NCBI RefSeq assembly: GCF_988243305.1
Contig: NZ_OZ547136.1
Length of the DNA: 64,000 bases
Strand: one strand, 5' to 3'
Shown one piece after another: positions 2,314 to 19,370 of this stretch (its first letter is position 1; each line of letters opens with the position of its first letter). Below the pieces are notes generated by a model. The model searched no databases and was not told where the DNA came from. It worked only from the letters and a program-made list of their open reading frames with translations. Both the position numbers and the translations under genes were made by a program.

Positions 2314-2394
2314 TAGATATGGCGAGGGTGAAAACGGAGAGACTTGCCTGACTTTTATCACGCCGTATCCGGCACCTTCGTCAGTAATTTGAAT

Positions 2395-2421: not shown

Positions 2422-2425
2422 GCAA

Positions 2426-3925
2426 TTAACTCGCCGTTTCAGGCTTAAACACAATTTCCTGTTGTTCTTCATCTTCCTCGACGACTGGCGCAGTGCTGTG
2501 AATTTCAGCAACGCGTTTGCGCACACCAAACCAGCCTATAACCAGCAGAATACCGATAATCGGCAGCGCCGCGATGGTATAAGTCCCGTTCGGGTAATCG
2601 AACGCCATCAGCACCAGGACGCTCAGCAAAAACAGTAATGTCAGCCAGGAAGTGAAGGGCGCGCCAGGCAGTTTAAAACTGACATCCGCGGCTTTGCCTT
2701 CTTTAATCGCTTTACGCAGGCGCATCTGGCACACGATGATAAACGCCCATGAAGCGATGATTCCCAGCGACGCGAAGTTCAACACAATCTCAAATACGCG
2801 CGACGGCACCAGATAGTTGAGGAATACGCCGACGACATACACAACCAGTGTCGCCAGAATCCCGGCATACGGCACATGCTGACGACTCATTTTCGCCATA
2901 AAACTCGGTGCGGAACCGCCCATCGCCATTGAGCGCAGAATACGTCCGGTGCAGTACAGACCTGAATTCAGGCTGGAGAGGGCAGCGGTCAGCACCACAA
3001 TGTTCATAATGCTGCCGATATATGGCACACCCAGTTTAGAGAAAAACGTCACGAACGGACTTTGCCCCGCCTGATACGCGCTCCACGGCAATAACATAAC
3101 CAGCAACACCACGGAGCCGACGTAAAACAGGCCAATACGCCAAATCACACTGTTAATCGCTTTAGGCACCATGGTCTGCGGATCTTTACATTCTCCGGCA
3201 GCTGTACCCACCATTTCAATGGAGGCAAAAGCAAACACTACGCCCTGAATCAACACCAGCGCAGGCAGCAAACCGTGGGGGAAGAAGCCGCCATTATCGG
3301 TGATTAAATGAAAGCCAGTGGTGTTGCCATCCAGCGGCTGACCACTACCGAGGAACACTGTACCCACGACCAAAAAGGTCACAATGGCGAGCACTTTAAT
3401 AAGCGCAAACCAGAACTCCATCTCCGCAAACCATTTCACACCGATCATATTCATGGTGCCAACGATGGTAAGTGCAGCGAGCGCAAAGACCCACTGCGGT
3501 ACACCACCAAATGCGCCCCAGTAATGCATATACAGTGCAACGGCGGTAATATCGACAATCCCCGTCATCGCCCAGTTGATGAAGTACATCCAGCCTGCAA
3601 CGTAAGCGGCTTTCTCTCCTAAAAACTCACGGGCATAAGAGACAAAACTGCCACTGGAAGGGCGGTGTAACACCAGCTCACCCAATGCACGCAGAATAAA
3701 AAACGAAAACAAGCCACAAATTAAATAGACCAGTGCCAGTGCTGGACCCGCCATTTGCAGTCGGGCTCCCGCGCCTAAAAACAAACCCGTACCAATCGCG
3801 CCGCCAATGGCGATCATCTGTACCTGGCGATTGCCCATCGCTTTGTGATACCCCTCTTCGTGGGCATTAAGCCAGCGGCGTTTCGCGGCGTGTTGATCTG
3901 AAGTGTCGGTGTCGTGTTTACTCAT
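2426..3925 (-). CDS. ansP: L-asparagine permease (APC family)
   Basis: ORF track gives 516 aa; the recognised AnsP sequence begins at internal MSKHDTDTSD (499 aa), so start placed at 3925. Multi-TM amino acid permease. Confidence 0.9.
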   Translation of the reverse strand: MSKHDTDTSDQHAAKRRWLNAHEEGYHKAMGNRQVQMIAIGGAIGTGLFLGAGARLQMAGPALALVYLICGLFSFFILRALGELVLHRPSSGSFVSYAREFLGEKAAYVAGWMYFINWAMTGIVDITAVALYMHYWGAFGGVPQWVFALAALTIVGTMNMIGVKWFAEMEFWFALIKVLAIVTFLVVGTVFLGSGQPLDGNTTGFHLITDNGGFFPHGLLPALVLIQGVVFAFASIEMVGTAAGECKDPQTMVPKAINSVIWRIGLFYVGSVVLLVMLLPWSAYQAGQSPFVTFFSKLGVPYIGSIMNIVVLTAALSSLNSGLYCTGRILRSMAMGGSAPSFMAKMSRQHVPYAGILATLVVYVVGVFLNYLVPSRVFEIVLNFASLGIIASWAFIIVCQMRLRKAIKEGKAADVSFKLPGAPFTSWLTLLFLLSVLVLMAFDYPNGTYTIAALPIIGILLVIGWFGVRKRVAEIHSTAPVVEEDEEQQEIVFKPETAS

Positions 3926-4191
3926 TGCTCTCCCTGATTGCTTTAATGAAAAAGTCATATAAGTTGCCATGAACAATGTTTATTCATCCTGGCGATGATA
4001 GTTATCACCATTATTCTTTATGGGTATAAAACTATCGGCGCAGCATCCTACCCGTTATCGATAAACGATGCAAAACATCCCCTTACAATCCTGAAGGGGA
4101 ATAATACAACTGACGAAAAAATGACAAATCCTTTTGCTGGTTAACCTGTGTACTGTCCTACACTTAATCTTTAAAAGATTGTGAGGGGCAT

Positions 4192-4809
4192 ATGATTAAG
4201 GTGTATGGCGTACCCGGATGGGGCTCTACAATCAGTGAGCTGATGCTAACACTGGCTGATATTCCTTATCAGTTCGTTGATGTCAGTGGTTTTGACCACG
4301 AGGGAACCTCACGCGAGTTATTGAAAACCCTGAACCCGTTGTGTCAGATTCCGACACTGGCGCTGGAAAATGACGAGATTATGACGGAGACAGCGGCGAT
4401 TGCATTGATGGTTCTCGATCGTCGCCCGGACCTTGCGCCACCGGTTGGGCGCGCCGAACGTCAGCAGTTTCAACGGCTATTGGTCTGGCTGGTTGCTAAT
4501 GTCTATCCAACATTCACTTTCGCCGATTACCCTGAGCGTTGGGCTCCTGACGCACCCGAACAGTTAAAGAATAATGTTATTGAATATCGTAAATCGCTTT
4601 ATATCTGGCTGAATTCACAATTGACCGCTGAACCTTATGCCTTTGGCGAGCAACTAACGCTGGTGGACTGTTATCTCTGCACCATGCGCACATGGGGGCC
4701 GGGGCATGAATGGTTTCACGATAATGCGCAGAATATCAGTGCGATTGCTGAAGCTGTATGTCAGTTACCGAAATTACAAGAAGTATTAAAAAGGAATGTC
4801 ATTATTTAA
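4192..4809 (+). CDS. yncG: Glutathione S-transferase-like protein
   Basis: 205 aa, ATG start; GST-like N-terminal thioredoxin-fold pattern; position after ansP as in K-12. Confidence 0.8.
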   Translation: MIKVYGVPGWGSTISELMLTLADIPYQFVDVSGFDHEGTSRELLKTLNPLCQIPTLALENDEIMTETAAIALMVLDRRPDLAPPVGRAERQQFQRLLVWLVANVYPTFTFADYPERWAPDAPEQLKNNVIEYRKSLYIWLNSQLTAEPYAFGEQLTLVDCYLCTMRTWGPGHEWFHDNAQNISAIAEAVCQLPKLQEVLKRNVII

Positions 4810-5029
4810 CAATAATGCCGGAGGTTAATGTTAATGAATCACTGGCGTAATTAACTGGATATCCATTTGTTTGCTATGAATAGTAATTAAAGTTGGTACA
4901 ACTATTTATATGATTGATGTAATTTCGTTTTTTATATGAAATATCAATTTAATATAATCCGAAAATAAAACATCTTTTCGCATGTAGAGAAACATGTCGA
5001 TATGATAGTGCAGTGCAGATCATGTCATC

Positions 5030-5210
5030 AGGGTAGGGCGGTAGCGTATTTAATCAGGGAAAGATTACGCAACGCTGCTTTTTTGTATTGAACGATTCGC
5101 ATTTTATGTTTAAAAATTGCGATATTCCTTATTTCCTGAAGCTGTTTTTATTGCTTATACATGATCAAATACTCCTTACATAATTAAGGAGAACAAAATG
5201 GAACTTAATA
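5030..5210 (+). mobile_element. Remnant of H-repeat (ISAs1-family) element left end, ~150-180 bp, truncated right after the transposase start codon
   Basis: Near-identical to the 5' leader of the H-repeat copies at 10255-10440 and 14945-15095 (cagggaaagat...ttatgtttaaaaattg...gatcaaatactccttacataattaaggagaaca-ATG-GAACTTAA), then diverges. Confidence 0.6.
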
Positions 5211-5348
5211 CACGCCAACAATTTGTATTACTTAAATAGACCAGTGAAGGTACGCATCAGAACATCCGGTGAAGTGATTAATATTTCGTTGAATATTTCT
5301 CCCGATTTTTGAAACCTGCTGCTGTAGAAATTCTGAACAGGAGGAATT

Positions 5349-5633
5349 ATGCCTTTAGCAGCCAAACTCACCGACAAAGGCACCCAGCACGACGGTTATT
5401 ACGAGACCGTCATCACCGCCGGGTCATCCACCGTCTTTATCGATGGTCTTCCCGCAGCCCGTCAGGGAGATCCGCTGACGCCGCATGCTAAACCGAAGCA
5501 TCCCCCTCATCCCCGTAAAATCGCCAGAGGTTCTTCAACCGTCTTTATTGACGGCCTGCCCGCCGCCAGAAGCGGTGATGCTGTTGACTGCGGCGGCGTG
5601 GTTATTGGTGGCGGTACGGTAAATATAGGCTGA
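5349..5633 (+). CDS. PAAR-domain protein (T6SS spike tip)
   Basis: 94 aa; AGGAGG RBS 6-11 nt upstream; repeated GSSTVFIDGLPAAR(Q/S)GD motifs typical of PAAR; immediately upstream of vgrG. Confidence 0.75.
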   Translation: MPLAAKLTDKGTQHDGYYETVITAGSSTVFIDGLPAARQGDPLTPHAKPKHPPHPRKIARGSSTVFIDGLPAARSGDAVDCGGVVIGGGTVNIG

Positions 5634-5651
5634 TATGTCTGAGAGGTATTT

Positions 5652-7616
5652 ATGTCCTTAAAAGGTCTTCGCTTTACGCTGGAGGTTGACGGCCAGGAGC
5701 CGGACACCTTTGCAGTGGTGAATTTCAGGTTAATCCAGAACCAGTCATATCCGTTTGTGATGAGTGTGGATGTTGCCAGCGACTCTTTTATGCAGACGGC
5801 GGAGATGCTGCTGGAGAAGAAGGCGACACTGACCATCTGGCAGGGCGCAGTGGCGCAGCGTTATGTCACCGGCGTGGTGGCGGGTTTTGGCATGCAGGAG
5901 AATAACGGCTGGCAGATGCGTTATCACCTGCGTATTGAGCCGCCGTTATGGCGGTGCGGGCTGCGGCAGAACTTTCGTATCTTCCAGCAGCAGGATATCC
6001 GGACGATATCGGCCACGTTACTGAACGAGAACGGCGTCACGGAGTGGACGCCGCTGTTTTATGAGGACCATCCGGCGCGGGAGTTCTGTGTCCAGTACGG
6101 AGAGAGCGACCTGGCGTTTCTGTCCCGGCTGTGGGCGGAGGAGGGAATTTTCTTCTTTGAGCGGTTTGCGGCGGACAGTCCGGAGCAGAAGCTGACGCTG
6201 TGCGACGATGTGGCGGGGCTGTCACAGGCGGGGGAGTTTCCGTTTAACCCGGACACATCGGCAGGAGCGGAGACGGAGTGTGTCAGTATGTTCCGTTATG
6301 AGGCGCATGTCCGCCCGTCATCGGTGCAGAGCCAGGATTACACGTTTAAGGTGCCGGACTGGCCGGGGATGTATGAGCAGCAGGGTGAGAACCTGAACGG
6401 ACAGCTGGCGCAGTATGAGATATTTGATTATCCGGGAAGGTACAAGGATGAACAGCACGGCAAGGATTTCACGCTGTACCGGATGGAGAGCCTGCGCAGT
6501 GATGCGGAAAAGGCCACAGGGCAGAGTAATTCACCGAAGCTGTGGCCGGGAACGCGGTTTACGCTGACGGGGCATCCGCAGAAGATGCTGAACCGTGAAT
6601 GGCAGGTGGTACAGAGCATACTGTCAGGAAGCCAGCCGCAGGCGCTGCACGGCAGCCAGGGGAGAGGAACCACGCTGGGCAATCAGTTAGAGGTGATACC
6701 GGCGGACCGGACGTGGCGTCCACGGCTGCAAAGCAAACCGAAGGTGGACGGGCCACAGAGCGCCATTGTCACCGGTCCTGCGGGAGAGGAAATCTTCTGC
6801 GACGAACACGGACGTGTGCGAGTGCAGTTTCACTGGGACAGGTATAACCCGGCAACGGAGGCGAGTTCGTGCTGGGTGAGGGTGTCACAGGCGTGGGCGG
6901 GGCCGGGGTTCGGTAACCTGGCGATACCGCGGGTGGGCCAGGAGGTGATTGTTGATTTCCTGAACGGCGACCCGGACCAGCCGATAATCATGGGACGGAC
7001 ATACCATGAGGACAACCGTTCACCGGGGAGTCTGCCGGGGACGAAGACGCAGATGACGATACGGTCGAAGACCTATAAAGGTAGCGGATTTAACGAGCTG
7101 CGGTTTGAAGACGCCACCAGTAATGAGCAGGTGTATATCCATGCGCAGAAGAACATGGATACGGAGGTGCTCAACGACCGGACAACGGATGTGAAACATG
7201 ACCATACGGAAACCATCGGTAACAACCAGAAGATAACGGTGGTGAAGGGCCAGACGGTGAATGTGGGGAGCAAAAAGGAAGGTGGTCATGACCAGAAAGT
7301 GACAGTGGCGAATGACCAGACCATTACGGTACAAAACGATCAGCGGCTGGATGTTACCCACGATCGTCACAAGGATGTAGGGAACGATCAAATCAGTAAG
7401 ATAATAGGAAAAGATACCGAAGAAGTCGTGAAATCCCAGGATATTAAAGTTGGAGAAGATTACAGCCTGACAGTTACCAACAGCCTCACCATTAAAGTCG
7501 GTGAATGCTTACTGAAAATGAATAAGGACGGTACTATCATTCTCAATGGTAAAAGTATCCAGATTGAAGGAAAAGATAAAATCAATATTTTCGGCGCAGA
7601 TATTGATCTGGATTAA
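5652..7616 (+). CDS. vgrG: T6SS spike protein VgrG with divergent C-terminal tail
   Basis: 654 aa; canonical VgrG N-terminus (GLRFTLEVDG...PPLWRCGLRQNFRIFQ) and gp27/gp5-like body; last ~90 aa and underlying DNA (from ~7380) AT-rich and unlike the canonical VgrG C-terminus preserved at 11572-11916. Confidence 0.9.
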   Translation: MSLKGLRFTLEVDGQEPDTFAVVNFRLIQNQSYPFVMSVDVASDSFMQTAEMLLEKKATLTIWQGAVAQRYVTGVVAGFGMQENNGWQMRYHLRIEPPLWRCGLRQNFRIFQQQDIRTISATLLNENGVTEWTPLFYEDHPAREFCVQYGESDLAFLSRLWAEEGIFFFERFAADSPEQKLTLCDDVAGLSQAGEFPFNPDTSAGAETECVSMFRYEAHVRPSSVQSQDYTFKVPDWPGMYEQQGENLNGQLAQYEIFDYPGRYKDEQHGKDFTLYRMESLRSDAEKATGQSNSPKLWPGTRFTLTGHPQKMLNREWQVVQSILSGSQPQALHGSQGRGTTLGNQLEVIPADRTWRPRLQSKPKVDGPQSAIVTGPAGEEIFCDEHGRVRVQFHWDRYNPATEASSCWVRVSQAWAGPGFGNLAIPRVGQEVIVDFLNGDPDQPIIMGRTYHEDNRSPGSLPGTKTQMTIRSKTYKGSGFNELRFEDATSNEQVYIHAQKNMDTEVLNDRTTDVKHDHTETIGNNQKITVVKGQTVNVGSKKEGGHDQKVTVANDQTITVQNDQRLDVTHDRHKDVGNDQISKIIGKDTEEVVKSQDIKVGEDYSLTVTNSLTIKVGECLLKMNKDGTIILNGKSIQIEGKDKINIFGADIDLD

Positions 7617-7631
7617 TCTGGAGAAATTAAC

Positions 7632-8573
7632 ATGAATATTGAAAATGAAACTGGTTTTCCTCACTTTCAGTTCGAAAAAGTGGGATATTATGGTGAGTTA
7701 TTCACAGTAGTGGTAGTTAATCAGACATTTGATTTTTCATATAGCGGCGGTCTCTGTCTGATTGCGGATGAGCAGCGACTGCCACTGATGACCGACTCCT
7801 GGTACGGCGAACCGGAAAGCAGCAGTCTTAAAACAGCAACCGATTTGGTTTGCAGAAAAGTCAGGGCAGATGTTTTATTAAATGGACACGCATGGCATGC
7901 CACCGGGGAAACCACTCGATGGCAGGCCAGTTTACAGGTGGGTAATCTTCAGCGCCAATTTGATATATGTGGCCCTTGCCAATGGCAATATATATCTAAC
8001 CGCTGGCAACTTAGCGAACCTGAATTAACTGATCGGGTACTGTTACGCCATGAACTGGCGTCAGCCAGTGAATTTAATCCTGTAGGCATTGTTATTCCCT
8101 CCCTGATAACGCTTGGCGATAAATCGCCCTGTCCAGCTCCACAGTTATCTGCCTCACCAGGAGCTATTTGCCGTAGCTGGCCTTCACGATTGCGCTATGC
8201 CAGAGGTTTTACAGAACAGTGGCAAAAGACTGTTCAACCTTTTTATCCAGATGAATTCGATTTTGCATTCATGAATTATTCTCCACCAGAACAACAATAC
8301 GATGGTTATTTAATTGGCAATGAAAAAATTATATTGAACGGCCTGTTACCTTCTAAAATGGAACAAACTTGTTTCCTTCCAGATATTAGACTATTGGCGT
8401 ATTTGTTTTACCGCTCTGATAAAAACGTAGAACTGCGCCCATTGTTGGCTGACACACTGACCATCCACACAGACGATGAGCAACTAACACTACTCTGGCG
8501 CTTAACGCTCCCCGTGGATTCTCTTCCACAACGTATTGTTTTGACGACGGAGCAGAGGGGACCTCATGGCTGA
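7632..8573 (+). CDS. DUF2169-family T6SS adaptor protein
   Basis: 313 aa; N-terminus MNIENETGFPHF...FTVVVVNQTFDF fits the DUF2169 signature; 15 nt after vgrG stop and overlaps the next gene by 8 nt. Confidence 0.75.
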   Translation: MNIENETGFPHFQFEKVGYYGELFTVVVVNQTFDFSYSGGLCLIADEQRLPLMTDSWYGEPESSSLKTATDLVCRKVRADVLLNGHAWHATGETTRWQASLQVGNLQRQFDICGPCQWQYISNRWQLSEPELTDRVLLRHELASASEFNPVGIVIPSLITLGDKSPCPAPQLSASPGAICRSWPSRLRYARGFTEQWQKTVQPFYPDEFDFAFMNYSPPEQQYDGYLIGNEKIILNGLLPSKMEQTCFLPDIRLLAYLFYRSDKNVELRPLLADTLTIHTDDEQLTLLWRLTLPVDSLPQRIVLTTEQRGPHG

Positions 8574-9699
8574 AAATCATATTGGTTGTCGTGAATCGAA
8601 GTACGTTGCGATATGTATTGCGCCTGATGTCTGCAAGGTTGGTGATGCGATAGTGCCGTTTGACAGCTTTCAGAACCTGACACATGAGAAAATTTATATC
8701 AGCAATGTCAGGGCACGGGGCAATCCAATACTGACCGTGGACTGTATTATTGCAGGTACACGAAGTAATGCCGGGAAAGGTGTCAGTTCTGGCACCAGTC
8801 TGGGCAGCGGTGACTGCCGGATACTGACAGGCGTGGATCATATAAAGTGCAAGGGAAAGCCGGTAGCCAGGAATCTTTCGCTGGTTGCCATGAATAATGA
8901 TAATACTGTTGGAAAACTGTATACCCAGACAAACCCGCCAAATCAGATAATACCTGTTAAAGAATCATCGCTTTGGGCCAAGTATCTGGAACTGCAAATA
9001 CAACAGCAAGAGTTTGAGCTTGAGTCCAAAAAGCAAGAAGCAGATGCAATGATAGGATTAGGCAAGGCATTTATTAATGGCTGGTATATGTTGGGTGCAT
9101 TGATTGCCAAAGGTCAGATGCAAAATGACATTGCCCAAATGGAAAGTAATATTGCTCTGGCGAGAGGGTTGGGGATGGATACCCAAATTATGGAGCGGGC
9201 GAATGAGACCAACAGGGAGGTAATGGAAACTATTGATCCTAGAGAGCCATTGTTGAAACCTGCCAATGAAACCCAAGCAATGGCGATGGAGGTTGAGCCA
9301 TGGCTGGAACTTATGACCGGGGTTGGAGCACTGGTGAAAGGTTTGGTCAAGTTTTCAGCGAAGTTTGCAATAAAATCGGTTGGCAGAATGGGGAGGAGCG
9401 GTGCTAAAATTGTGCTGGATGCAAATGGATTGCCTATTCCTGTTCCTCCAAGCGTTGGCGCTGCGGGAAGAGTTCCGAGAGTATTACAAACTGGAGGTAA
9501 TACTCTTGAGGCAAGAACTGCCAGGGAGTTAAATGAATTTTTTGGTAAAAATATTAACAGGAGAGAATGGGGGAAAGCTTTAGAAAAGTTGAAAAAAGAT
9601 TTACGCTTACGAGGTGATCACCATGGTCGAATACTTGATAATGGTGATTATATTGATGACTCAGGAAATATTTTAGGAAACATAGAAGATTATTTATGA
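8566..9699 (+). CDS. DUF4150 (PAAR-like) N-terminal domain fused to unclassified C-terminal toxin domain; predicted T6SS effector
   Basis: 377 aa; N-terminal ~125 aa with PDVCK motif typical of PAAR-like DUF4150; C-terminal ~250 aa not recognisable by eye (ends ...RGDHHGRILDNGDYIDDSGNILGNIEDYL); start overlaps DUF2169 stop (ATGGCTGA). Confidence 0.7.
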   Translation: MAENHIGCRESKYVAICIAPDVCKVGDAIVPFDSFQNLTHEKIYISNVRARGNPILTVDCIIAGTRSNAGKGVSSGTSLGSGDCRILTGVDHIKCKGKPVARNLSLVAMNNDNTVGKLYTQTNPPNQIIPVKESSLWAKYLELQIQQQEFELESKKQEADAMIGLGKAFINGWYMLGALIAKGQMQNDIAQMESNIALARGLGMDTQIMERANETNREVMETIDPREPLLKPANETQAMAMEVEPWLELMTGVGALVKGLVKFSAKFAIKSVGRMGRSGAKIVLDANGLPIPVPPSVGAAGRVPRVLQTGGNTLEARTARELNEFFGKNINRREWGKALEKLKKDLRLRGDHHGRILDNGDYIDDSGNILGNIEDYL

Positions 9700-10175
9700 T
9701 TAAGAATATACAATCAAGGCTTACCCCGATATCTCATGAATATCCAAGTTGTGATGAGTGCTATGCTAGCCTCTTGATTTACACAGGTAATACTCACCCT
9801 AATGAAATAAGTATTCACTTAGAACTTGAGCCAACATCAATTAATATAAAAGGAGATGAAATTATTACTCTATCGGGAAAGAAAAGATATGCAAAAAATT
9901 CATATTGGATGCTCTCGTCAGAAAATCTAGTGAACTCGAAAGATATTCGAGAACATCTGGATTGGCTACTTCACAAACTTGGACCTAAATCATCAAATAT
10001 TGCAAAATTGCAAGCATTAGAAAATATTTCAATGGGTATTGACTGTACCTGGAGATCATTGAATTGGCACGGTGGGCCAACTTTATGGCCTGAGCAGATG
10101 AAAATAATGGCTAATCTTGGATTGGAGTGTTCATTTGATATTTATTTCGTCGGCAATGAAGATGGCAATCTTTAA
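9696..10175 (+). CDS. Candidate cognate immunity protein (cytoplasmic, no signal peptide)
   Basis: 159 aa; start overlaps effector stop (ATGA), suggesting translational coupling; AT-rich; no recognisable family. Confidence 0.5.
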   Translation: MIKNIQSRLTPISHEYPSCDECYASLLIYTGNTHPNEISIHLELEPTSINIKGDEIITLSGKKRYAKNSYWMLSSENLVNSKDIREHLDWLLHKLGPKSSNIAKLQALENISMGIDCTWRSLNWHGGPTLWPEQMKIMANLGLECSFDIYFVGNEDGNL

Positions 10176-10254
10176 TTATTGCTCGCAAATTTTTAATAAA
10201 CAAATAGCACAATAAAATACTCGGTATCTATGGTATATACCTAATAAACAAGGG

Positions 10255-11571
10255 CAGGGAAAGATCATCAGAAGTACACTTTTTGTACCAGGGAAAGATC
10301 ACGTAACGCTGCTTTTTTGTACTAAATAATTCGCATTTTATGTTTAAAAATTGAGATATTCCTCATTACCTGAAGCTGTTTTTTATTGAGTATACATGAT
10401 CAAATACTCCTTACATAATTAAGGAGAACACAATGGAACTTAAAAAATTGATGGAACATATTTCTATTATCCCCGATTACAGACAAGCCTGGAAAGTGGA
10501 GCATAAATTGTCGGATATTCTACTGTTGACTATTTGTGCCGTTATTTCTGGTGCAGAAGGCTGGGAAGATATAGAGGATTTTGGGGAAACACATCTCGAT
10601 TTTTTAAAACAATACGGTTATTTTGAAAATGGTATTCCTGTTCACGATACCATCGCCAGAGTTGTATCCTGTATCAGTCCTGCAAAATTTCACGAGTGCT
10701 TTATTAACTGGATGCGAGATTGCCATACTTCAGATGATAAAGACGTCATCACAATTGATGGAAAAACGCTCCGGCACTCTTATGACAAGAGTCGCCGCAG
10801 GGGAGCGATTCATGTCATTAGTGCGTTCTCAACAATGCACAGCCTGGTCATCGGACAGATCAAGACGGATGAGAAATCCAATGAGATTACAGCTATCCCA
10901 GAACTTCTTAACATGCTGGATATTAAAGGAAAAATCATCACAACTGATGCGATGGGTTGCCAGAAAGATATTGCAGAGAAGATACAAAAACAGGGAGGTG
11001 ATTATTTATTCGCTGTAAAAGGAAACCAGGGGCGGCTAAATAAAGCCTTCGAGGAAAAATTTCCGCTGAAAGAATTAAATAATCCAGAGCATGACAGTTA
11101 CGCAATTAGTGAAAAGAGTCACGGCAGAGAAGAAATCCGTCTTCACATTGTTTGCGATGTCCCTGATGAACTTATTGATTTCACGTTTGAATGGAAAGGT
11201 CTGAAGAAATTATGCGTGACAGTCTCCTTTCGGTCAATAATAGCAGAACAAAAGAAAGAGCCAGAAATGACGGTCAGATATTATATCAGTTCTGCTGATT
11301 TAACCGCAGAGAAGTTCGCCACAGCAATCCGAAACCACTGGCACGTGGAGAATAAGCTGCACTGGCGTCTGGACGTGGTAATGAATGAAGACGACTGCAA
11401 AATAAGAAGAGGAAATGCCGCAGAATTATTTTCAGGGATACGGCACATCGCTATTAATATTTTAACGAATGATAAGGTATTCAAGGCAGGGTTAAGATGT
11501 AAGATGCGAAAAGCAGCCATGGACAGAAACTACCTGGCGTCAGTCCTTGCTGGGAGCGGGCTTTCGTAATC
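10255..11571 (+). mobile_element. Intact H-repeat (ISAs1-family) element
   Basis: Left-end leader shared with two other copies; contains full 378 aa transposase ORF; right end abuts vgrG fragment. Confidence 0.8.
10433..11569 (+). CDS. H repeat-associated (ISAs1-family) transposase
   Basis: 378 aa [55 protein letters not shown]..., the conserved H-rpt ORF found with Rhs elements. Confidence 0.85.
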
Positions 11572-11916
11572 TTGCCCTGGCAGGAGCATAAGACGACGGG
11601 GAACCATGTCAGCCTGGTGGAGGGAAAGCACAGTCTGGAGGTGAAAGGCGATCTGGCGAGGAAGGTGAGTGGCACGCTGGGGATAAAGGTGGACGGGGAT
11701 ATCGTGCTGGAGAGCTGCAGCCGGATAAGCCTGAAGGTGGGCGGTTCGTTTATCGTTATTCAGTCGGGCGGTGTGGATATAGTGGGGCCGAAGATAAATC
11801 TTAATGGTGGGGGGAGTCCGGGGACACCGGTACCGACACTGCAACCCACTGTCCTGAACACTTTAGTCACTAATGATACGGATAGTAATACTGATGATGA
11901 TATCGGTAATGATTAG
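11572..11916 (+). pseudogene. vgrG: vgrG 3' fragment (canonical VgrG C-terminal ~110 aa), orphaned by H-repeat insertion or recombination
   Basis: Translation ...SRISLKVGGSFIVIQSGGVDIVGPKINLNGGGSPGTPVP matches canonical VgrG C-terminus; ORF-track start is a TTG immediately after transposase stop, so no genuine start. Confidence 0.7.
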
Positions 11917-12093
11917 ACCAGAGTGAAGTTCATGTTCTCGTAGCGGGATAATCATTCAGATAAAGATAACGGATGACGGTAGTAATAATAATACAATAAT
12001 ACTGTGATTTTCTGCTTTCTAAGCAGAGATGCTCTGTGAATGAATAATTCATACTCGTTACATGTTTTATAATCTTAATAAGGACTATTGATA

Positions 12094-14166
12094 ATGATAA
12101 TCAGCCCTCCAATATTGCATGCGCATATAGACACTGAAAAAGACTCTGACTGGGTAAACAGAATGATGTCTGTTGATCCAGAGAGAAATTTCCCAATGAA
12201 TAGCGGTCGTTCTTGGCATGGTGGAGTTCATTTGAACGGCAATCTGTCAGAGACTGTTAGGTGTATTGCCGATGGGAAGGTTATTTCAATACGCCAGCCA
12301 GAACCAGCGAAAAATACAGTTCCCCCGTTAAATTATAACGGAGTTACGGATAAAGGCTATGTTCTGATAAAACATGAAACAGAAATCGGTAGTGGAGAAG
12401 AGGGTAAAATCGTCTATTACTCATTATATATGCACCTGAGAAGCATTGACAGTAATGTGCAGCCGGGAAACACGCTATACCGGAAAGAACCGGTTGGTGC
12501 AGCAGGGATGGTGGACGGACAGAACGCCTTTCATTTTCAGATTTTTTGTGATGATGAAAACATTCAGAAAATCACAGGAAGAATATCACCGGAAACAGAC
12601 CTGAATAAAGATGGACGAACTAATGTGGTTTACGGTGATAGTCATTTTTATCTCCCTACCGGAACACCGATTTATGGGGACATGCCGGAAGAAAACTCGC
12701 TTGCGAACAACAGTCCGGTACAAAGAACCAGCGTGCCATTGTATGTCACAATGAGTTTTGATAAAGGCAATTGTACGATGGTGACGCGTCAGCAGCATGA
12801 AGTGCTGAGTGATTCCTATACTGAAGTAGGTTCTCCCTTGATTAATGCTGATGGTAAGGATTATGAATACAATCTCTATTCCTACGCGCTGCAACTCTAT
12901 CCGAAAAGCCCAAGTGCCGGTTATGAGATGCTGCGTTTTGGTCGGGTTGTTAATACAGAATATGAAGAATTAGTCCCGGCGGATGCGCCGCTGTGGAGAA
13001 CAATCAATACGCCACAGGGTAAAGGCGTTGTTAACTTAGGGGCGAGAGATATCAGGGTTTACAGCGACGGTGATTTTCCACACTGGACAGGGTGGAAACT
13101 GGTGAACGATGATGCGGACACCAACAGCCAGTGCAATTCACCAACAATCCTGTGTACAACCCGCAATGACCTAAGTCGGATGATTTGTCATTTTCCGCTA
13201 GAATGGGACAGCGCCACCGTGGAATCACGGTTTGAGTGGCTGAAATCACCCAATGACGTATTGAGTAAGCCGATGACAGAGCCTGACCTGGATTTGCTGA
13301 TAGAACACTGTAAGGCGCTTTGTTTGGTAGAGAATCCGTTACCTGCCAGGCGTGTATGGCATTTTGATCCCAGGCAGTTTATTGCACATTTCAGGAAATG
13401 TGGATGGTTAGGAGAAAATGATATTATAAGTGTGGTAAGACGTTATCAAAATGCTTATCCCATGACATCAGAACTTACAAGACCATTAAGTAAAGACACT
13501 CTAATTGAGCGGATTACTAGCCAAGGACAAAATAGCAGTGGTGAGATGATAAGACCTGCAGGGTTGAAAAATGAACTGTCAAAGTCACTAAGGAAGTACT
13601 TAATTACAACCCCATTGCGGATTGCGCATTATTTCGGTCAGATGGCGAGAGAAACAGGCAGATTTTCGTCTTTTATAGAGAATGGTGATTTGAGTTATTT
13701 TGATATGTATGAGCCAGGAACAGAACAGGGACTTAAGCTTGGAAATAATGTTGTTGGTGATGGTGCAAGATTTAAAGGCAGAGGTACCATACATCTAACT
13801 GGTCGTGAGAATTATAGAAATTATGGAAAGTATAGAAATCCGTCAGATGATGATTTTTTTACTACAGGACCCAATAACCAACTCCCAGTTGAAAATGCCT
13901 ATTTTTCTTGCGATGCCGGGGGATACTTTTGGGCAAGTAAGCAAAAATACATAATGGTAAGCCATCGATTGACACCTAGTGGTAGTTTAGGCGTTAATTA
14001 TTGGGCGGATAAAGGATGTAGTTTGTCACATGCCAGAGAAGTTACACGGCGAATAAACCCAGCAGCAGATGGCTTCGATTTAGTACGTTGGCCAGCATTT
14101 GAGCATTCTTGGTATGTATTGAATGATGAAATAACACCTCCACTTAATTACATAAGGATTGTTTAA
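12094..14166 (+). CDS. Predicted bifunctional peptidoglycan hydrolase effector: N-terminal M23-like peptidase domain, C-terminal GH19/lysozyme-like domain
   Basis: ORF-track start 12088 is TTG; ATG at 12094 has AAGGA RBS ~10 nt upstream (690 aa). N-terminal region aligns by eye to LytM/M23 (HGGVHL...YYSLYMHL...AFHFQIF) with non-canonical metal-ligand positions; C-terminal region carries GH19-like motifs (AHYFGQMARETG...GRGTIHLTGRENY...GGYFWASK). Confidence 0.7.
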   Translation: MIISPPILHAHIDTEKDSDWVNRMMSVDPERNFPMNSGRSWHGGVHLNGNLSETVRCIADGKVISIRQPEPAKNTVPPLNYNGVTDKGYVLIKHETEIGSGEEGKIVYYSLYMHLRSIDSNVQPGNTLYRKEPVGAAGMVDGQNAFHFQIFCDDENIQKITGRISPETDLNKDGRTNVVYGDSHFYLPTGTPIYGDMPEENSLANNSPVQRTSVPLYVTMSFDKGNCTMVTRQQHEVLSDSYTEVGSPLINADGKDYEYNLYSYALQLYPKSPSAGYEMLRFGRVVNTEYEELVPADAPLWRTINTPQGKGVVNLGARDIRVYSDGDFPHWTGWKLVNDDADTNSQCNSPTILCTTRNDLSRMICHFPLEWDSATVESRFEWLKSPNDVLSKPMTEPDLDLLIEHCKALCLVENPLPARRVWHFDPRQFIAHFRKCGWLGENDIISVVRRYQNAYPMTSELTRPLSKDTLIERITSQGQNSSGEMIRPAGLKNELSKSLRKYLITTPLRIAHYFGQMARETGRFSSFIENGDLSYFDMYEPGTEQGLKLGNNVVGDGARFKGRGTIHLTGRENYRNYGKYRNPSDDDFFTTGPNNQLPVENAYFSCDAGGYFWASKQKYIMVSHRLTPSGSLGVNYWADKGCSLSHAREVTRRINPAADGFDLVRWPAFEHSWYVLNDEITPPLNYIRIV

Positions 14167-14170
14167 AACA

Positions 14171-14674
14171 ATGAATTTTAAAAAAACAATAATCACTTCG
14201 GTAGGTTTGATATTTATTTCATTCTCTTTTGTGGCAGAGTGCTCTCAACTCAAAAATTTGAATAATTACTCAGTGATGCTTTGTGGAAAAGTGTCAAGTA
14301 ATATCCTTGATGATATTGGTGGTTATAAAGAAAGAGATAAAAAATCCGAAATGGTAGATTTACTTATATTAATTAGTAATGACGAGCCTATCGGTGTTTC
14401 TGAGACCAAAGTGATTTCTAATGGTAAAATATATTTTAAGGGGGAAAGTACTATGAACTTGGATGCCTCATTCATTATGACAATAAATGGTGGAGTTCAT
14501 ACTGACACTGTCACTTATATATCAAAGAAGAATAAAATTATCGGGGGCTACTTTTATAATAATGAGAGTAAAACTGATAAGCTTAAGGAAGTATATATCT
14601 CAAACACAGGAACTGTATATCATATAAATATTGAAAGTGTCAGCGATGATAAATGTCTTGATAAATTTAAGTAA
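14171..14674 (+). CDS. Candidate periplasmic immunity protein (Sec signal peptide)
   Basis: ORF-track start 14159 is TTG; ATG at 14171 gives MNFKKTIITSVGLIFISFSFVAEC... with hydrophobic signal sequence; 4 nt after effector stop; AT-rich. Confidence 0.5.
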   Translation: MNFKKTIITSVGLIFISFSFVAECSQLKNLNNYSVMLCGKVSSNILDDIGGYKERDKKSEMVDLLILISNDEPIGVSETKVISNGKIYFKGESTMNLDASFIMTINGGVHTDTVTYISKKNKIIGGYFYNNESKTDKLKEVYISNTGTVYHINIESVSDDKCLDKFK

Positions 14675-14944
14675 CGATAAGGCAAGGATGATTGATTGGG
14701 TTTAGTTAAGTTTCGAGAACAAATTTCCGCGGCAGAGAGTATAAATGTAGGGGCAAGAATGCTAAAATCGTGAAGTGCACCACAACTATAATTCCAGTTT
14801 ACTTTGTTTATTTGATTGTAATTTAACCATTAAATGATTAGGTTTTTTAGAAAAGGACGTCTGATGAATGTTTAAATTAATTTTGAATACATTTCAATTA
14901 TTTTGTTGTATGTTGGCAAGGTCAAATAAGACATAATTTAATGG

Positions 14945-15650
14945 CAGGGAAAGATCATCGTAAGTACACTTTTTGTACTAAATAATTTGCATTTTATGTT
15001 TAAAAATTGAGATATTCCTCATCACCTGAAGCTGTTTTTTATTACTTATATATGATCAAATACTCCTTACATAAATAAGGAGAACAAAATGGAACTTAAA
15101 AAATTGATGGAACATATTTCTATTATCCCCGATTACAGACAAGCCTGGAAAGTGGAACATAAATTATCGGATATTCTACTGTTGACTATTTGTGCTGTTA
15201 TTTCTGGTGCAGAAGGATGGGAAGATATAGAGGATTTTGGGGAAACACATCTCGATTTTTTGAAGCAATATTGTGATTTTGATAATGGTATTCCTGTTCA
15301 CGATACCATTGCCAGAGTTGTATCCTGTATCAGTCCTGAAAAATTTCATGAGTGCTTTATTAACTGGATGCTTGACTGCCATTCTTCAGATGATAAAGAC
15401 GTCATTGCAATTGATGGAAAAACGCTCCGGTACTCTTATGACAAGAGTCGTCGCAAGGGAGCGATTCACGTTATTAGTGTGTTCTCAATAATGCACAGTC
15501 AGATTCCTTGGAAGATCAAGACGAATGAAAAAAACAATGAGATTACAGCTGTTTCTGAATTTCTTAACATAATGGGTATTAAAGGAAAAATAATTGCACC
15601 GATCCAATGTGATACCAGAAAGACATCGCTAAGAAGATAGCTATAGACAA
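14945..15650 (+). mobile_element. Truncated H-repeat (ISAs1-family) element, 5' ~700 bp only
   Basis: Same left-end leader as the copy at 10255; transposase ORF frameshifted and truncated (183 aa) relative to the intact copy. Confidence 0.75.
15089..15640 (+). pseudogene. H-repeat transposase, truncated/frameshifted
   Basis: 183 aa, highly similar to residues 1-175 of the intact copy, then diverges and stops. Confidence 0.75.
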
Positions 15651-15713
15651 TTATTACCCTCCGTCAGCCCTTGTTAAGCGAGGAGAGACGTAATCTGTCC
15701 AGTCCCCTAATGC

Positions 15714-16811
15714 TTATAAAGCCCATCGATTTCGCCCACTTTCTTTCGCCCGGTATAACGCAGCGTCGGCATCTGAAATAATTTGTTCAGCCGTTTTTGC
15801 GGGAGCAGAACAGGTAATCCCCTGACTAACCGTAACGAATGCATTAACAGCAGATGCCTGATGTGGGATAGCTGCCAGTTTAAGTTCTTGCTTCACTCTG
15901 GCTGCTACCGTCTTTGCTTCCGGCAATGTTGCATTAAAAAGTATGATGGCAAACTCTTCGCCACCATAACGGACAACAACATCCTCCGACTGGCGAGTTG
16001 AACGCTGTAGAGCGTCGGCAACTTGTATTAGACAACGATCCCCAGCAGGATGCCCGTAAGTGTCGTTGTAACGTTTAAAAAAATCGACATCCAGCATAAT
16101 AAGAGCAAATGACCCGCCGTTATCCATCGCGTCGTGTAAGATACTGTTCATTGCACGTCGGTTTGCTATCCCAGTTAAAGGATCACGATGTGCTAATGCA
16201 TCAAGGCGATTAATTAACTGGTTGTTATAACTGTTTTGTACCCATGCTTCTTCAAACCAACGTAACAAAATGAGTCGCCCACCATATAGCGCCAGTGAAA
16301 AAATACACCATACAACAGCAAAATGAATATTGATCTGTTGATTAAGCATAAGACTCGCTATTGGAGTGGTGAACCATAAGGGAATGACAAATGCGAGCAA
16401 TGATGGGGTATGGAAATAAAGTGCGACAACGCCACTAAGCATTAATAATACACATAGTGGATAAGCAAACTGCAGCGTCCAGTACGCAATAAAGTGATAA
16501 CTACACCATGACCATAGCAGGCTCAGGGCAACTAATAGCACCTGGATAGGTAATGTTTTTTGCCGAGGGATGAGTAGTAAACCACTGCAAATCAGCAGAA
16601 TACCCGTTGCAGATATATCAATAGAATGTATAAGGCTTTTTTCATTTAACCAGGGTGGAGTAAGGTCATTAAACAGAACACGGCGCAGCAAAATTATCAA
16701 TGCAAAACTGACATTGATAAAAGCAAACCATGGCAAACTAATTGTCATGCCGCGGATAACCATATCGCGGCGTGTTTGCCACGAGTGATGCGTTTTTCTT
16801 CTTTCAGCCAT
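15714..16811 (-). CDS. Membrane-anchored diguanylate cyclase (GGDEF domain)
   Basis: 365 aa; N-terminal multi-TM region; C-terminal GGDEF domain with RYGGEEF active-site motif and conserved DVDFFKRYND...GH.AGD pattern; absent from this position in K-12. Confidence 0.85.
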   Translation of the reverse strand: MAERRKTHHSWQTRRDMVIRGMTISLPWFAFINVSFALIILLRRVLFNDLTPPWLNEKSLIHSIDISATGILLICSGLLLIPRQKTLPIQVLLVALSLLWSWCSYHFIAYWTLQFAYPLCVLLMLSGVVALYFHTPSLLAFVIPLWFTTPIASLMLNQQINIHFAVVWCIFSLALYGGRLILLRWFEEAWVQNSYNNQLINRLDALAHRDPLTGIANRRAMNSILHDAMDNGGSFALIMLDVDFFKRYNDTYGHPAGDRCLIQVADALQRSTRQSEDVVVRYGGEEFAIILFNATLPEAKTVAARVKQELKLAAIPHQASAVNAFVTVSQGITCSAPAKTAEQIISDADAALYRAKESGRNRWAL

Positions 16812-16857
16812 TTTTTAGCCAAATAAGGGCAGGAGACCTGCCCGATACAGAGTAAAA

Positions 16858-18834
16858 TTATGGTGTCACTATATTGAACCAAAATTCAAAATTATCCATA
16901 TAACCTAACAGCTCGTTGAGCTTTTCCGCATTGCCGGTAATTTTGACATCACCTTTGTCCGTGGCTTCTTTCAGCGTCTCTTCTTTCAGTACAATTTTGT
17001 TCAATACATCACGAGATAGAGAGATAGTGGCATCAGCCTCCGAAGCCTCTACACCAGCGGTATGATTGAGAACACCATTTTCAAGCTCTACCTTATAGGT
17101 GCCGCCATCTTCACCAAAATCGAAATTCAACACGGCTTTGGCATCTGCCGCTTTCTCACCATTAATATGGACGGCAAGATAATCAAAGAACATTTCTGGC
17201 GTCATTGCACGCACAGTGTCAGGGCTGGCAGTATTTGGTGTTGGTAATTTTTGTACGCCGTTACGCAATTCCTGTGCACCAGTGAGATAGAAATTACGCC
17301 ACGGCCCAGATTCAGCCTGATAGCCTAACTGCTCAAGCGCATCAGCTTCCAGATTTCTCGCTGCCTGGTTGTTTGGATCCGCAAACACCACCTTACTAAC
17401 AACTTGGGCAACCCAGCGGAAATTACCCTGGTCATAATCCTGTTTGGCTTTCTGTAAAATGGCATCAGCACCGCCCATATACTCGACGAATTTTTTTGCG
17501 CCTTCTTCTGGCGGTAGTTCATCAAGCGTCGCGGGGTTACCATCAAACCAGCCGAGATAAAGCACGTAAGTTGCTTTCACGTCATGACTTACCGAACCGT
17601 AATAGCCGCGATTCGCCCAGGTGTTAGCCAGTGAAGAGGGCAGTTTAAAGTTTGCGGCAATTTCATCACGGGTCATCCCTTGATTAGCCATGCGCAGAGT
17701 TTGATCATTGATGTAACGATACAAATCACGCTGGCTTTTAAGCAGTTTGACCACGTTATCGTTGCCCCAGGTTGGCCAGTGATGTTGAGCGAGAATAATC
17801 TCGGCTTTATCACCCCACAAATTGAGAGCTTCATTAATATATTTTGACCACGGCAGCGGTTGGCGAATTTTAGCCCCACGCAGCGAATAGGTGTTATGAA
17901 GGGTGTGCGTGACATCTTCAGCGGTTTCGATCAGTTTCTTTTCTTCAATAAACCACAGCATTTCAGAAGGCGCTTCAGAACCTGGCGCCATCAGGAAATC
18001 ATAAGTCAACCCGTCAATAGTTTCTTTTTGTCCGGTTTTGGTGATGTAGTTAGTAGGAGCAATCAACGTGACTGTTCCTGCTGAAGTAGTCGTTCCCAGT
18101 CCAGCCCCCACCTGGCCTTTAACATCAGGTTTCAATAAGTTGCCATACATATAACTGGCTCGTCGGCTCATCACATTGCCAGCCATAATATTTTCGGAAA
18201 CGGCTTCCTCCAAAAATCCGGCTGGCGCATAGATTTTAACTTTGCCTGATTTAACGTCAGCTTCATCAATTACGCCACGAACACCACCGTAGTGATCGAC
18301 ATGACTGTGTGTATAGATAACCGCCACTACCGGTTTTTTGCCGCGATTTTTGTAATAGAGATCCATACCCACTTTGGCTGTTTCTGCTGAAACAAGGGGA
18401 TCAACGACGGTAATACCCTCTTTGCCTTCAATGATGGTCATATTTGATAGATCGAGATTGCGAATCTGATAGACACCTTCAGTTACTTCGAATAACCCGC
18501 TGATATTTATCAGTTGCGCCTGACGCCATAAACTCGGATTCACCGTATCAGGGGCTTTATCGCCTTCTTTGATAAAAGCGTAATGTTGTGGATCCCAGAT
18601 AACATTCCCTTGTTCGCCCTTAATCACGTCTTGAGGGATAGGGGCAATAAAACCTTTATGGGCATCAGTAAAGTCAGTGTTATCGGCAAACGGCAACTGG
18701 TTGGAGAGTAAATTGTTTGCTTGTTGCGTGGCTGCGGTGGCGTCTTTAGGAGCTTCCGCCGCGAGGAGAGGTAAAGAACTGGTGGTGAATAATCCCGTTA
18801 TTAGCAGACTTTTAACGATATGATTAAGCTGCAT
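16858..18834 (-). CDS. Secreted alkyl/aryl sulfatase, metallo-beta-lactamase fold (YjcS/SdsA1/BDS1-like)
   Basis: 658 aa; signal peptide MQLNHIVKSLLITGLFTTSSLPLLAAEAP; MBL motif THSHVDHYGG; C-terminal SCP2-like dimerisation region typical of the family; not at this locus in K-12. Confidence 0.8.
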   Translation of the reverse strand: MQLNHIVKSLLITGLFTTSSLPLLAAEAPKDATAATQQANNLLSNQLPFADNTDFTDAHKGFIAPIPQDVIKGEQGNVIWDPQHYAFIKEGDKAPDTVNPSLWRQAQLINISGLFEVTEGVYQIRNLDLSNMTIIEGKEGITVVDPLVSAETAKVGMDLYYKNRGKKPVVAVIYTHSHVDHYGGVRGVIDEADVKSGKVKIYAPAGFLEEAVSENIMAGNVMSRRASYMYGNLLKPDVKGQVGAGLGTTTSAGTVTLIAPTNYITKTGQKETIDGLTYDFLMAPGSEAPSEMLWFIEEKKLIETAEDVTHTLHNTYSLRGAKIRQPLPWSKYINEALNLWGDKAEIILAQHHWPTWGNDNVVKLLKSQRDLYRYINDQTLRMANQGMTRDEIAANFKLPSSLANTWANRGYYGSVSHDVKATYVLYLGWFDGNPATLDELPPEEGAKKFVEYMGGADAILQKAKQDYDQGNFRWVAQVVSKVVFADPNNQAARNLEADALEQLGYQAESGPWRNFYLTGAQELRNGVQKLPTPNTASPDTVRAMTPEMFFDYLAVHINGEKAADAKAVLNFDFGEDGGTYKVELENGVLNHTAGVEASEADATISLSRDVLNKIVLKEETLKEATDKGDVKITGNAEKLNELLGYMDNFEFWFNIVTP

Positions 18835-19367: not shown

Positions 19368-19370
19368 TGC

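Follow-up and report, generated by a model that had tools for sequence, protein, structure and literature searches.

H-rpt/ISEc1 copies mark nested insertion, loss and probable recombinational exchange in an orphan PAAR-VgrG island of Escherichia coli

The window, i.e. the whole 64,000-nt stretch of DNA analysed here (contig NZ_OZ547136.1 of RefSeq assembly GCF_988243305.1), carries its H-rpt copies at the yncG-pptA (RhsE) hot spot of E. coli, where the cargo is an orphan PAAR-VgrG island of type VI secretion (T6SS), built of PAAR-VgrG-effector-immunity modules. Four left ends of H-rpt/ISEc1, an element of the ISAs1 family, were found in the window, all in direct orientation, and a single right end was found at 11567–11579 on the minus strand. 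The original prediction had placed three left-end copies; its positions hold, and the count becomes four with the sequence at 10255–10288 counted separately. The three regions share significant identity, as had been claimed: a repeat search groups them all, with 10289–10383 and 14945–15039 being 91% and 79% identical to 5055–5149, and with 5145–5208, 10380–10443 and 15036–15099 forming a second group at 95% identity each. A unit of 34–39 nt was grouped at 10250–10288, 10284–10322 and 14940–14978. The motif CAGGGAAAGATYA occurs eight times when up to two mismatches are allowed (2.4 expected), a number that no shuffle reached.

Copy 2 is a complete ISEc1/H-rpt of 1,291 bp on the plus strand (10289..11579) with a B-type left inverted repeat (IRL) at 10289–10312 and a right inverted repeat (IRR) at 11556–11579. 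The left-end region of an intact element had been predicted at 10255–10440; the intactness was borne out and the element has the boundaries given here. The length equals that of ISEc1, which we take to be 1,291 bp (ISfinder; Zhao et al. 1993). The single ORF of 1,137 nt, present in the ORF list at 10433..11569 (plus strand), encodes an intact transposase of 378 aa that scores 414 bits against NCBIfam model NF033564 (cut-off 70) and is thus an ISAs1-family DDE transposase; size and coding content of the element are those of ISAs1 elements (about 1.2–1.5 kb, one ORF). Both inverted repeats begin with CAGGG and are imperfect: IRL CAGGGAAAGATCACGTAACGCTGC and IRR CAGGGCAAGATTACGAAAGCCCGC share 18 of their first 24 nt by visual count, and 20 when all 34 are compared. 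With the K-12 ydcC H-rpt taken as the named ISEc1 copy, identity is 95.9% over 1,293 nt, which makes copy 2 an isoform under the rule of at least 95%, and in NZ_CP148331, a record 99.8% identical, the RefSeq/PGAP annotation reads ISEc1-family transposase. No target-site duplication of 8–10 bp surrounds copy 2, whose flanks are CTTTTTGTAC and GCAGGAGCAT, because the DNA adjacent to the right end has been lost. Copy 2 is thus a complete and probably active element; H-rpt transposition has reportedly never been observed experimentally (PMC3032704).

A leader hairpin, CUCCUUA-N6-UAAGGAG, is located at 10407..10426 (plus strand) and recurs in copy 1 (5172–5191) and copy 3 (15063–15082). In the predicted fold, at about −8 kcal/mol and with z-scores of −2.9 to −4.0, the Shine-Dalgarno sequence of the transposase is buried and a −10-like CATAAT lies in the loop. 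Such sequestration of the Shine-Dalgarno sequence would suit an element living in read-through transcription.

Directly in front of copy 2 stands the left terminus of an older resident H-rpt (10255..10288, plus strand), comprising its positions 1–34 in an A-type allele and severed by the ISEc1 insertion. This 34-mer falls outside the intact element because ISEc1 starts at 10289. The pair of 34-mers had been described as a tandem duplication; it is in fact a nested-insertion junction, the two units being identical at 24 of 34 positions and representing two different left-end alleles. Had the IS terminus been duplicated in tandem, through replication slippage or unequal exchange, the exact abutment of the two units and their common first 13 and last 9–10 nt would be accounted for, but we regard this as extremely improbable given differences at 10 of 34 positions and the separate affinities of the units: the first matches A-type ends (those of PS10-3, M1/5 and K-12 ydcC) at 33–34 of 34 positions, and the second is equally close to the B-type ends of K-12 ybfQ and ybfL. 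Moreover, the corresponding site of PS10-3 and M1/5 has the first unit without the second. PS10-3 matches window positions 1000–10288 at 98%, including the A-type 34-mer (34/34 identical to the H-rpt end after the same left flank), and then runs on as a single H-rpt; the H-rpt likewise continues after the single 34-mer of M1/5. At RhsC of ATCC 8739, finally, the matching right-hand junction is found: the 34|35 junction recurs there, intact on either side and with a target duplication of 10 bp, CTTTTTGTAC. A simple change in copy number of the unit was also rejected, the single unit of the relative continuing into a different H-rpt body. In the nested insertion, ISEc1 (copy 2) entered the left end of the older resident H-rpt between positions 34 and 35, leaving the first 34 bp of that element behind as an apparent tandem repeat. 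As copy 2 lacks a target duplication, we infer the 34|35 insertion by strain comparison; it is not readable in the window alone.

The distribution of such junctions was determined with junction queries of 66–68 nt at E <= 1e-10, in place of a 121-nt left-end BLAST that was dropped since it merged two pieces at one site. Of 5,426 complete genomes, 1,399 have the right-hand junction of the nested ATCC 8739 type. The exact A+B junction of the window is confined to one of the 5,426, plus one MAG contig. Another nested event, at 25|26, has the inferred duplication AGGAGTTCAC; its two halves are split between strains cq9 and O121. In 100,044 species-representative genomes scanned for double left ends, defined as two CAGGGAAAGAT motifs 21–41 nt apart, the one relevant match was this MAG contig with the window's own junction and the remaining 18 were unrelated simple or coding repeats; the scan therefore gives no indication that species other than E. 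coli have double left ends. As a side observation, at least three events of H-rpt self-insertion just inside a resident left end are supported in situ (RhsC; RhsE in cq9/O121; the window), and four further double left ends are found in O-antigen clusters.

The right end of copy 2 is fused directly to a 3′ fragment of a second vgrG (11580..11916, plus strand), which forms the far endpoint of a loss of ~3.4 kb. Window positions 11580–12141 are 96% identical to positions 12676–13234 of PS10-3 L013, and positions 9290–12675 of the latter are missing from the window. This is the largest rearrangement visible within the window, its boundary being flush with the ISEc1 right end. The alignment shows where the boundaries lie; what went missing, presumably after the nested insertion, is the remainder of the old H-rpt, one PAAR gene and the bulk of the second vgrG. 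In the original prediction the three repeats were candidate substrates for the recombination that rearranged the island; recombination among them does not account for the ~3.4-kb loss because no breakpoint lies in any of them. As mechanism we infer one of two: the IS itself mediated a deletion of adjacent DNA, or ISEc1 recombined with another copy of itself. The latter, homologous recombination between ISEc1 at 34|35 of the old H-rpt and another ISEc1 inside vgrG, is a serious possibility that we nevertheless do not favour. AST215 has undergone a two-step event of exactly this kind, in which a B-type left end in the M23 gene (window 12134|12135) is fused to the body of copy 3, and exchange between copies is frequent at the locus. 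The route requires two insertions plus one exchange, though, and the loci compared include no strain with a further ISEc1 inserted in vgrG. If the transposase instead removed the DNA in one step, the event would resemble the adjacent deletions mediated by insertion sequences of the IS1, IS26 and IS903 type: in the window, too, the IS terminus itself is the deletion boundary, the IS is kept and there is no target duplication, with the caveat that for ISEc1 recombination between two copies yields the same product. Concerning the order of events, the insertion at 34|35 may have come first, or ISEc1 may have entered vgrG first, with 34|35 as a later intramolecular target.

Copy 1 is a solo H-rpt left end of 154 bp (5055..5208, plus strand), in which the element breaks off at position 154; IRL (B-type), leader and ATGGAACTTAA are present. 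A solo remnant upstream of PAAR had been predicted here and is confirmed. It aligns to copy 2 with 142 of 154 nt identical. The copy was present at the same site with ~97% identity in every VgrG-island strain compared, and 31 of 35 metagenome contigs with the same ops-IRL junction have kept it. Copy 1 is an old stump common to all island-bearing strains; that an older deletion left it, as had been suggested, is plausible. Six nucleotides upstream of it lies an ops-like RfaH site, GGCGGTAGCGTA (5037..5048, plus strand), which matches the ops consensus GGCGGTAGCGTG (quoted in bioRxiv 2025.02.08.637259) at 11 of 12 positions. Its 11-mer GGCGGTAGCGT occurs once against 0.01 expected, and conservation of the site extends to K-12 rhsE and a cusS-vgrG island, where it again lies upstream. 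In an Rfam scan of positions 1–20000 at E <= 1 no family matched, hence no JUMPstart match was obtained at the ops region. As a separate observation, four independent places have an ISAs1-family left end 0–7 bp downstream of an ops/JUMPstart (RfaH) site and in the orientation of the operon: copy 1 of the window, the same ops site in FFFEB2 (where the element is a different member of ISAs1), and two distinct O-antigen JUMPstart sites.

A 13-codon ORF read from the sequence (5198..5239, plus strand) consists of the H-rpt start codon and three codons in in-frame fusion to the tail of a small ORF, one that precedes PAAR modules elsewhere, as seen by comparison with the second PAAR module of M1/5. 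Copy 1 might be more than neutral debris and owe its retention to co-option: as part of the 5′ leader of the PAAR-vgrG operon it would contribute promoter-like hexamers, a strong ribosome site and a small ORF in frame. The position of the stump between the ops site and PAAR, its ~97% identity across all island strains compared, the hexamers TATACA-17-CATAAT within it and the in-frame fusion of its ATG would be in line with this. We consider co-option unlikely: the promoter match is weak (9/12), shuffles yield such matches at least as often, one fusion in three would be in frame by chance, and second PAAR modules use a different upstream sequence.

The proposal that the direct repeats serve as recombination substrates is supported by natural variants found in strain comparison. 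The left flank of copy 1 (yncG plus the ops site) is joined to a full-length H-rpt in five complete genomes and three metagenome contigs, the latter being 3 of the 35 contigs. Three of the strains with this joint, AST215, O158:H23 and 18KM2445, lack the PAAR-VgrG module. In AST215 the H-rpt also bears the right flank of copy 2, with its IRR|GCAGGAGCAT junction and, up to window position 12134, the 3′ fragment of vgrG; this arrangement is the exact product of recombination between copies 1 and 2 with deletion of 5209–10443. Alignment places the crossover points differently in AST215, O158:H23 and 18KM2445; these are therefore independent homologous events. That O158:H23 and 18KM2445 represent deletion rather than insertion rests on parsimony. 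Conversely, strains with yncG, ops and a full H-rpt could be ancestral, the PAAR-VgrG module having been inserted later in that H-rpt at position 154. 18KM2445 indeed has copy-1-type SNPs through all 154 nt, and a different ISAs1 element occupies the same ops site in FFFEB2. Yet AST215 pairs the left flank of copy 1 with the right flank of copy 2 including the derived IRR|vgrG-fragment junction, which can only postdate the island; the crossover points are unequal among the three strains, and no known mechanism would insert at position 154 a 5.2-kb module whose end is an H-rpt left end. An ancestral full H-rpt is thus very unlikely in our view. In the deletion reading, recombination between copy 1 and a downstream copy removes the PAAR-VgrG module, as natural variants with three different crossover points show, and transposase activity would account for fresh insertions and for deletions flush with the element end.

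Copy 3 is a truncated and frameshifted H-rpt on the plus strand (14945..15639; ~695 nt), corresponding to positions 1–696 in alignment to copy 2. A truncated element had been predicted at 14945–15095; truncation and left end were correct, and the end lies at 15639. The truncated transposase sequence at 15089–15640 scores 169 bits with NF033564. Whereas the first 563 nt of the copy are 92–95% identical to modern H-rpt copies, its last 132 nt (15508–15639) are only 80% identical to them and match, at 99.2% identity, a fragment that follows a full H-rpt in PM06121. Copy 3 is thus a recombination product of a younger and an older H-rpt, and this chimera of a modern and an old part counts in favor of homologous recombination among H-rpts. 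A composite transposon bounded by two ISEc1 copies was ruled out on two grounds: copies 1 and 3 have no right ends, and matching flanking duplications are absent.

Taken together, we consider it highly likely that ISEc1 copies act as portable homology in this T6SS island, through nested insertion, a loss flush with the element end and recombinational deletion of a module. That H-rpt copies are recombination substrates in an Rhs-type "rearrangement hot spot" is known, textbook IS and Rhs biology; the window explains the shuffling and loss of orphan T6SS effector modules at yncG-pptA between E. coli strains, and the reading of the 34-bp repeat is corrected. The H-rpt/ISEc1 copies at the Rhs loci of K-12 (ydcC and yncI at RhsE; ybfQ, ybfL and ybfD at RhsC) are the same element, with 95.9% identity to ydcC, 1,291 bp, a 378-aa transposase and CAGGG termini, and they share the habit of tandem and truncated copies; those at RhsE also share the yncG-pptA hot spot. 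In K-12 the cargo of the locus is rhsE, whereas the window carries an orphan PAAR-VgrG effector island, and its resident copy has an A+B double left end. In O-antigen gene clusters, for example that of Salmonella group D2, a truncated H-repeat at the boundary of blocks of different origin has been invoked as mediator of rearrangement (PMC3715488). There, too, a truncated H-repeat marks the junction, and E. coli O-antigen loci also have double left ends; the cargo is polysaccharide rather than T6SS, and the O-antigen case was inferred from a single junction, whereas the window is accompanied by several natural variants with mapped crossover points.

Tentatively, ISAs1-family elements may choose their targets non-randomly, inserting either in the same orientation inside a resident left terminal repeat (25|26 to 34|35), which would build the tandem H-rpt arrays typical of Rhs loci, or 0–7 bp downstream of ops. 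Insertion near the element's own ends occurs with IS30 and IS911. As in those cases, the incoming copy lies at or beside a resident terminal repeat in fixed orientation, resulting in tandem elements; IS30 and IS911 belong to other IS families, however, and the site of the window type is 25–35 bp inside the element and does not abut the terminus. The original description of H-rpt is reportedly that of Zhao et al. 1993. In the full-text papers searched, neither an H-rpt self-insertion preference nor ops adjacency is described, and both may be new. If they hold true, the poorly studied ISAs1 family would prefer specific targets, namely its own left end and ops sites; the frequency of H-repeats at the start of O-antigen, Rhs and VgrG operons would be accounted for, and a connection of IS targeting with RfaH-dependent transcription, open to test, would be suggested. 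Apart from the H-rpt copies, a pair of inverted-repeat arms was noted in the window at 3518–3549 and 25929–25960; their complementarity of 75% appears chance-like.

The island lies between yncG and pptA, where K-12 has rhsE as judged from the surrounding genes. It starts with a PAAR-VgrG-DUF2169-PAAR-like effector-DUF4279 module, followed by ISEc1 (the H-repeat or H-rpt, ISAs1 family), a vgrG 3′ fragment with an M23 peptidase gene and a small downstream ORF for a putative immunity protein, a truncated H-rpt and finally a membrane-associated sensor-domain gene with an alkyl-sulfatase gene. Direct reading and a repeat search both confirmed that three regions share the H-rpt left end: 5055–5208 (copy 1, a stump), 10289–10443 (copy 2) and 14945–15099 (copy 3) are 79–95% identical, and local alignment of copies 1 and 2 yields 142 identities over 154 positions. 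The repeat search of the window found a 34–39-nt unit again at 10250–10288, 10284–10322 and 14940–14978. The terminal motif CAGGGAAAGATYA occurs in the window at 8 sites with ≤2 mismatches (2.4 expected), a number reached by no shuffle. One of these sites, on the minus strand at 11567–11579, is the right inverted repeat; the intact element therefore spans 10289–11579 (1,291 bp), and a first 34-mer at 10255–10288 lies outside it. The element carries a 378-aa ISAs1 transposase ORF (10433–11569; NCBIfam ISAs1 transposase model, 414 bits at a cut-off of 70), and the truncated ORF of copy 3, which reaches ~15639 (element position 696) in local alignment, scores 169 bits with the same model. Over its full length, copy 2 shares 95.9% identity with the ydcC-containing H-rpt of E. 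coli K-12. For the same genes in E. coli Z1323HEC0462 (NZ_CP148331), which is 99.8% identical to the window, PGAP gives an "ISAs1-like element ISEc1 family transposase" and a frameshifted partial copy.

The 34-mers at 10255 and 10289 were originally predicted to be a tandem duplication, but are identical at only 24 of 34 positions. The first (A-type allele) matches the H-rpt left end of PS10-3 at 34/34 positions and those of M1/5 and K-12 ydcC at 33/34. The second (B-type allele) matches the left ends of K-12 ybfQ and ybfL at 33/34 and is closer to the right inverted repeat (20/34, compared to 14/34 for the A-type). PS10-3 matches window 1000–10288 at 98%, including the A-type 34-mer; beyond this point PS10-3 runs on as H-rpt (TTTTTGTAC directly followed by TAAATAATTCAC), while the window has CAGGG… of ISEc1 instead. 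A single A-type end is also found in M1/5, behind the same left flank as in the window. The 24/34 match, the separate alleles and the single A-type ends of PS10-3 and M1/5 place a B-type ISEc1 inside a resident A-type H-rpt, apparently between its positions 34 and 35 (counted from the left end), and the pair is best read as the scar of this nested insertion. The exact A+B junction was found in only one of 5,426 complete genomes and in one MAG contig. The latter (JAFAEO010000056.1, 5.6 kb, from a MAG labelled 'Proteobacteria bacterium OH_SBlB_131') carries the junction together with the left flank, ends shortly past the IS start and is E. coli sequence.

A comparable junction with both sides intact is present at RhsC of ATCC 8739, where the 34-mer is followed by a full H-rpt of ~1,290 bp, CTTTTTGTAC and position 35 onwards of the outer element. 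Positions 25–34 are present twice as CTTTTTGTAC, a target duplication of 10 bp. The right half of this junction type is kept in K-12 and occurs in 1,399 of 5,426 complete genomes. A second nested event, at H-rpt position 25/26 at the RhsE locus, is independent of the one at 34/35 and its halves are found in two strains: in cq9 positions 1–25 of the outer element precede the inner element, and in an O121 strain the inner right end leads into the outer element at its position 16. Taken together, the two junctions point to a 10-bp duplication, AGGAGTTCAC. Four O-antigen clusters carry double left ends as well. In the O-antigen cluster of HB-Coli0 (locus positions 3501–3568 and 4828–4857) both termini of an H-rpt are accompanied by an additional, degenerate copy, one of 34 nt before the left end and one of 30 nt (23/30 identical) behind the right end, and there may be a symmetrical hot spot inside the H-rpt right end too.

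Directly past the right end of ISEc1, window 11580–12141 corresponds at 96% to 12676–13234 of the PS10-3 locus, inside the second vgrG. The 3,386 bp at PS10-3 9290–12675, comprising the rest of the old H-rpt, a 212-bp spacer, a PAAR gene and most of the second vgrG, are missing from the window, and comparison of the flanks revealed no target duplication around the window's ISEc1. A deletion that begins precisely where an IS ends is classically taken as a sign of IS-mediated adjacent deletion, and the loss does start exactly at the ISEc1 terminus. Recombination between two ISEc1 copies would leave the same product, so that the two routes are not separable here, and AST215 shows that the two-step route happens at this locus. 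The orphan module at 11580–14674 consists of the vgrG 3′ fragment, an M23-family peptidase of 692 aa and a putative immunity gene of 171 aa. Its full VgrG-M23 version is present in 1504D004 and PS10-3; neither the effector nor the putative immunity protein had an NCBIfam match.

Whereas the tandem duplication gives way to a nested-insertion scar, the proposal that the direct repeats serve as recombination substrates is supported by natural variants: AST215, O158:H23 and 18KM2445 carry distinct switch points between copy 1 and H-rpt. A chimeric query, in which copy 1 and its left flank were joined to the H-rpt ORF, was covered to 100% by five complete genomes. Among 35 metagenome contigs with the same junction of ops site and left inverted repeat, 3 likewise run on into a full H-rpt. 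The AST215 locus equals the window minus 5209–10443; its left flank and first ~45 nt of H-rpt are copy-1 type, and from there the H-rpt and the flank to its right correspond to copy 2 up to window 12134, with the derived junction of right inverted repeat and vgrG fragment included. In the alignments the switch falls between positions ~45 and ~66 in AST215 and within the first ~30 nt in O158:H23, and 18KM2445 is copy-1-like over all 154 nt. Since the switch point differs in each strain, these are independent homologous exchanges, which appear to have deleted the PAAR-VgrG module. In AST215 the M23 peptidase gene is additionally interrupted after ~15 codons by a B-type left end (locus position 6937/6938, window 12134/12135), which is joined to the copy 3 body (99% identity to window 14945–18528). 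This junction records a fresh insertion and a later exchange and, together with the nested insertion of the window, suggests recent transposition of B-type ISEc1 in this lineage. H-rpt transposition was said never to have been observed (PMC3032704).

Copy 3 (14945–15639) is a chimera: the first 563 nt share 92–95% identity with modern H-rpts, but over the last 132 nt the figure drops to 80%. This terminal part is 99.2% identical to an old fragment located behind a full-length H-rpt in PM06121. The truncation point 15639/15640 is the left boundary of the sensor/alkyl-sulfatase segment (15640–19050), which extends towards pptA. Its membrane-sensor gene is annotated as GGDEF or diguanylate cyclase in related strains; both genes occur in some strains only (e.g. 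PM06121 and AST215) and are absent from K-12, A30 and 1504D004.

Every island-bearing strain in the comparison has the copy 1 stump at this position, and so do 31 of the 35 metagenome contigs. H-rpt homology stops at 5208 and homology to the sequence upstream of the second PAAR modules of M1/5 and PS10-3 starts at 5206; origin from an older deletion, as predicted, is a reasonable reading. At 5198–5239 the H-rpt start codon and three further codons are in frame with the final ten codons of a small ORF, yielding MELNTRQQFVLLK before the stop; the matching ORF upstream of the second PAAR gene in M1/5 encodes MKEEWGITRQQFVLLK before its stop, and PAAR-vgrG modules may have a leader peptide in this small ORF. 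All H-rpt copies share a leader hairpin, CUCCUUA-N6-UAAGGAG (7 bp; 5172–5191, 10407–10426 and 15063–15082), with a folding energy of about −8 kcal/mol and z-scores of −2.9 to −4.0. The transposase Shine-Dalgarno sequence is its paired part and the loop contains a −10-like CATAAT. This layout, comparable to that known from other insertion sequences, is consistent with a predicted block of translation on read-through transcripts from outside, with transcripts from the element's own promoter being translatable.

Six nucleotides upstream of the copy 1 left end lies an ops-like RfaH site, GGCGGTAGCGTA (5037–5048; 11/12 to the RfaH ops consensus), whose 11-mer occurs once in the window compared to 0.01 expected. 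The stretch holding this site is also conserved ahead of rhsE in K-12 and ahead of a separate cusS-vgrG island. Such ops/JUMPstart sites also occur in comparison loci L004 (2602), L034 (~2540), L035 (~2540), L008 (~3490) and L039/L072. ISAs1-family left ends lie 0–7 nt downstream and co-oriented in four independent places: at copy 1, in strain FFFEB2 (another ISAs1 element, placed at the same yncG ops site), at an O-antigen JUMPstart of strain 22AR0750 and at another JUMPstart in metagenome contigs. The adjacency suggests either targeted insertion or insertion tolerated under antitermination; an E. coli T6SS cluster has recently been reported to be under RfaH/ops control (bioRxiv 2025.02.08.637259). 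This adjacency and the recurrent insertion of H-rpts, always in one orientation, slightly inward of one another's left end are both possibly new; our literature search, which did not extend to the original H-rpt papers, found neither pattern described. Because the sample is small and partly query-selected, we consider a real target preference in either pattern possible but rather doubtful.

H-rpt/ISEc1 has long been known at RhsB, RhsC and RhsE of K-12 (PMC3032704), and H-repeat remnants have been described where O-antigen clusters have recombination junctions (PMC3715488). Tandem and truncated copies are annotated at the K-12 Rhs loci. What the element is, the family it belongs to and its use as a recombination substrate are established, RefSeq annotation names the genes, and the window contains a known kind of element behaving as expected. 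A 32-nt inverted repeat (3518–3549 and 25929–25960), 75% complementary and with arms 22 kb apart, is probably due to chance.
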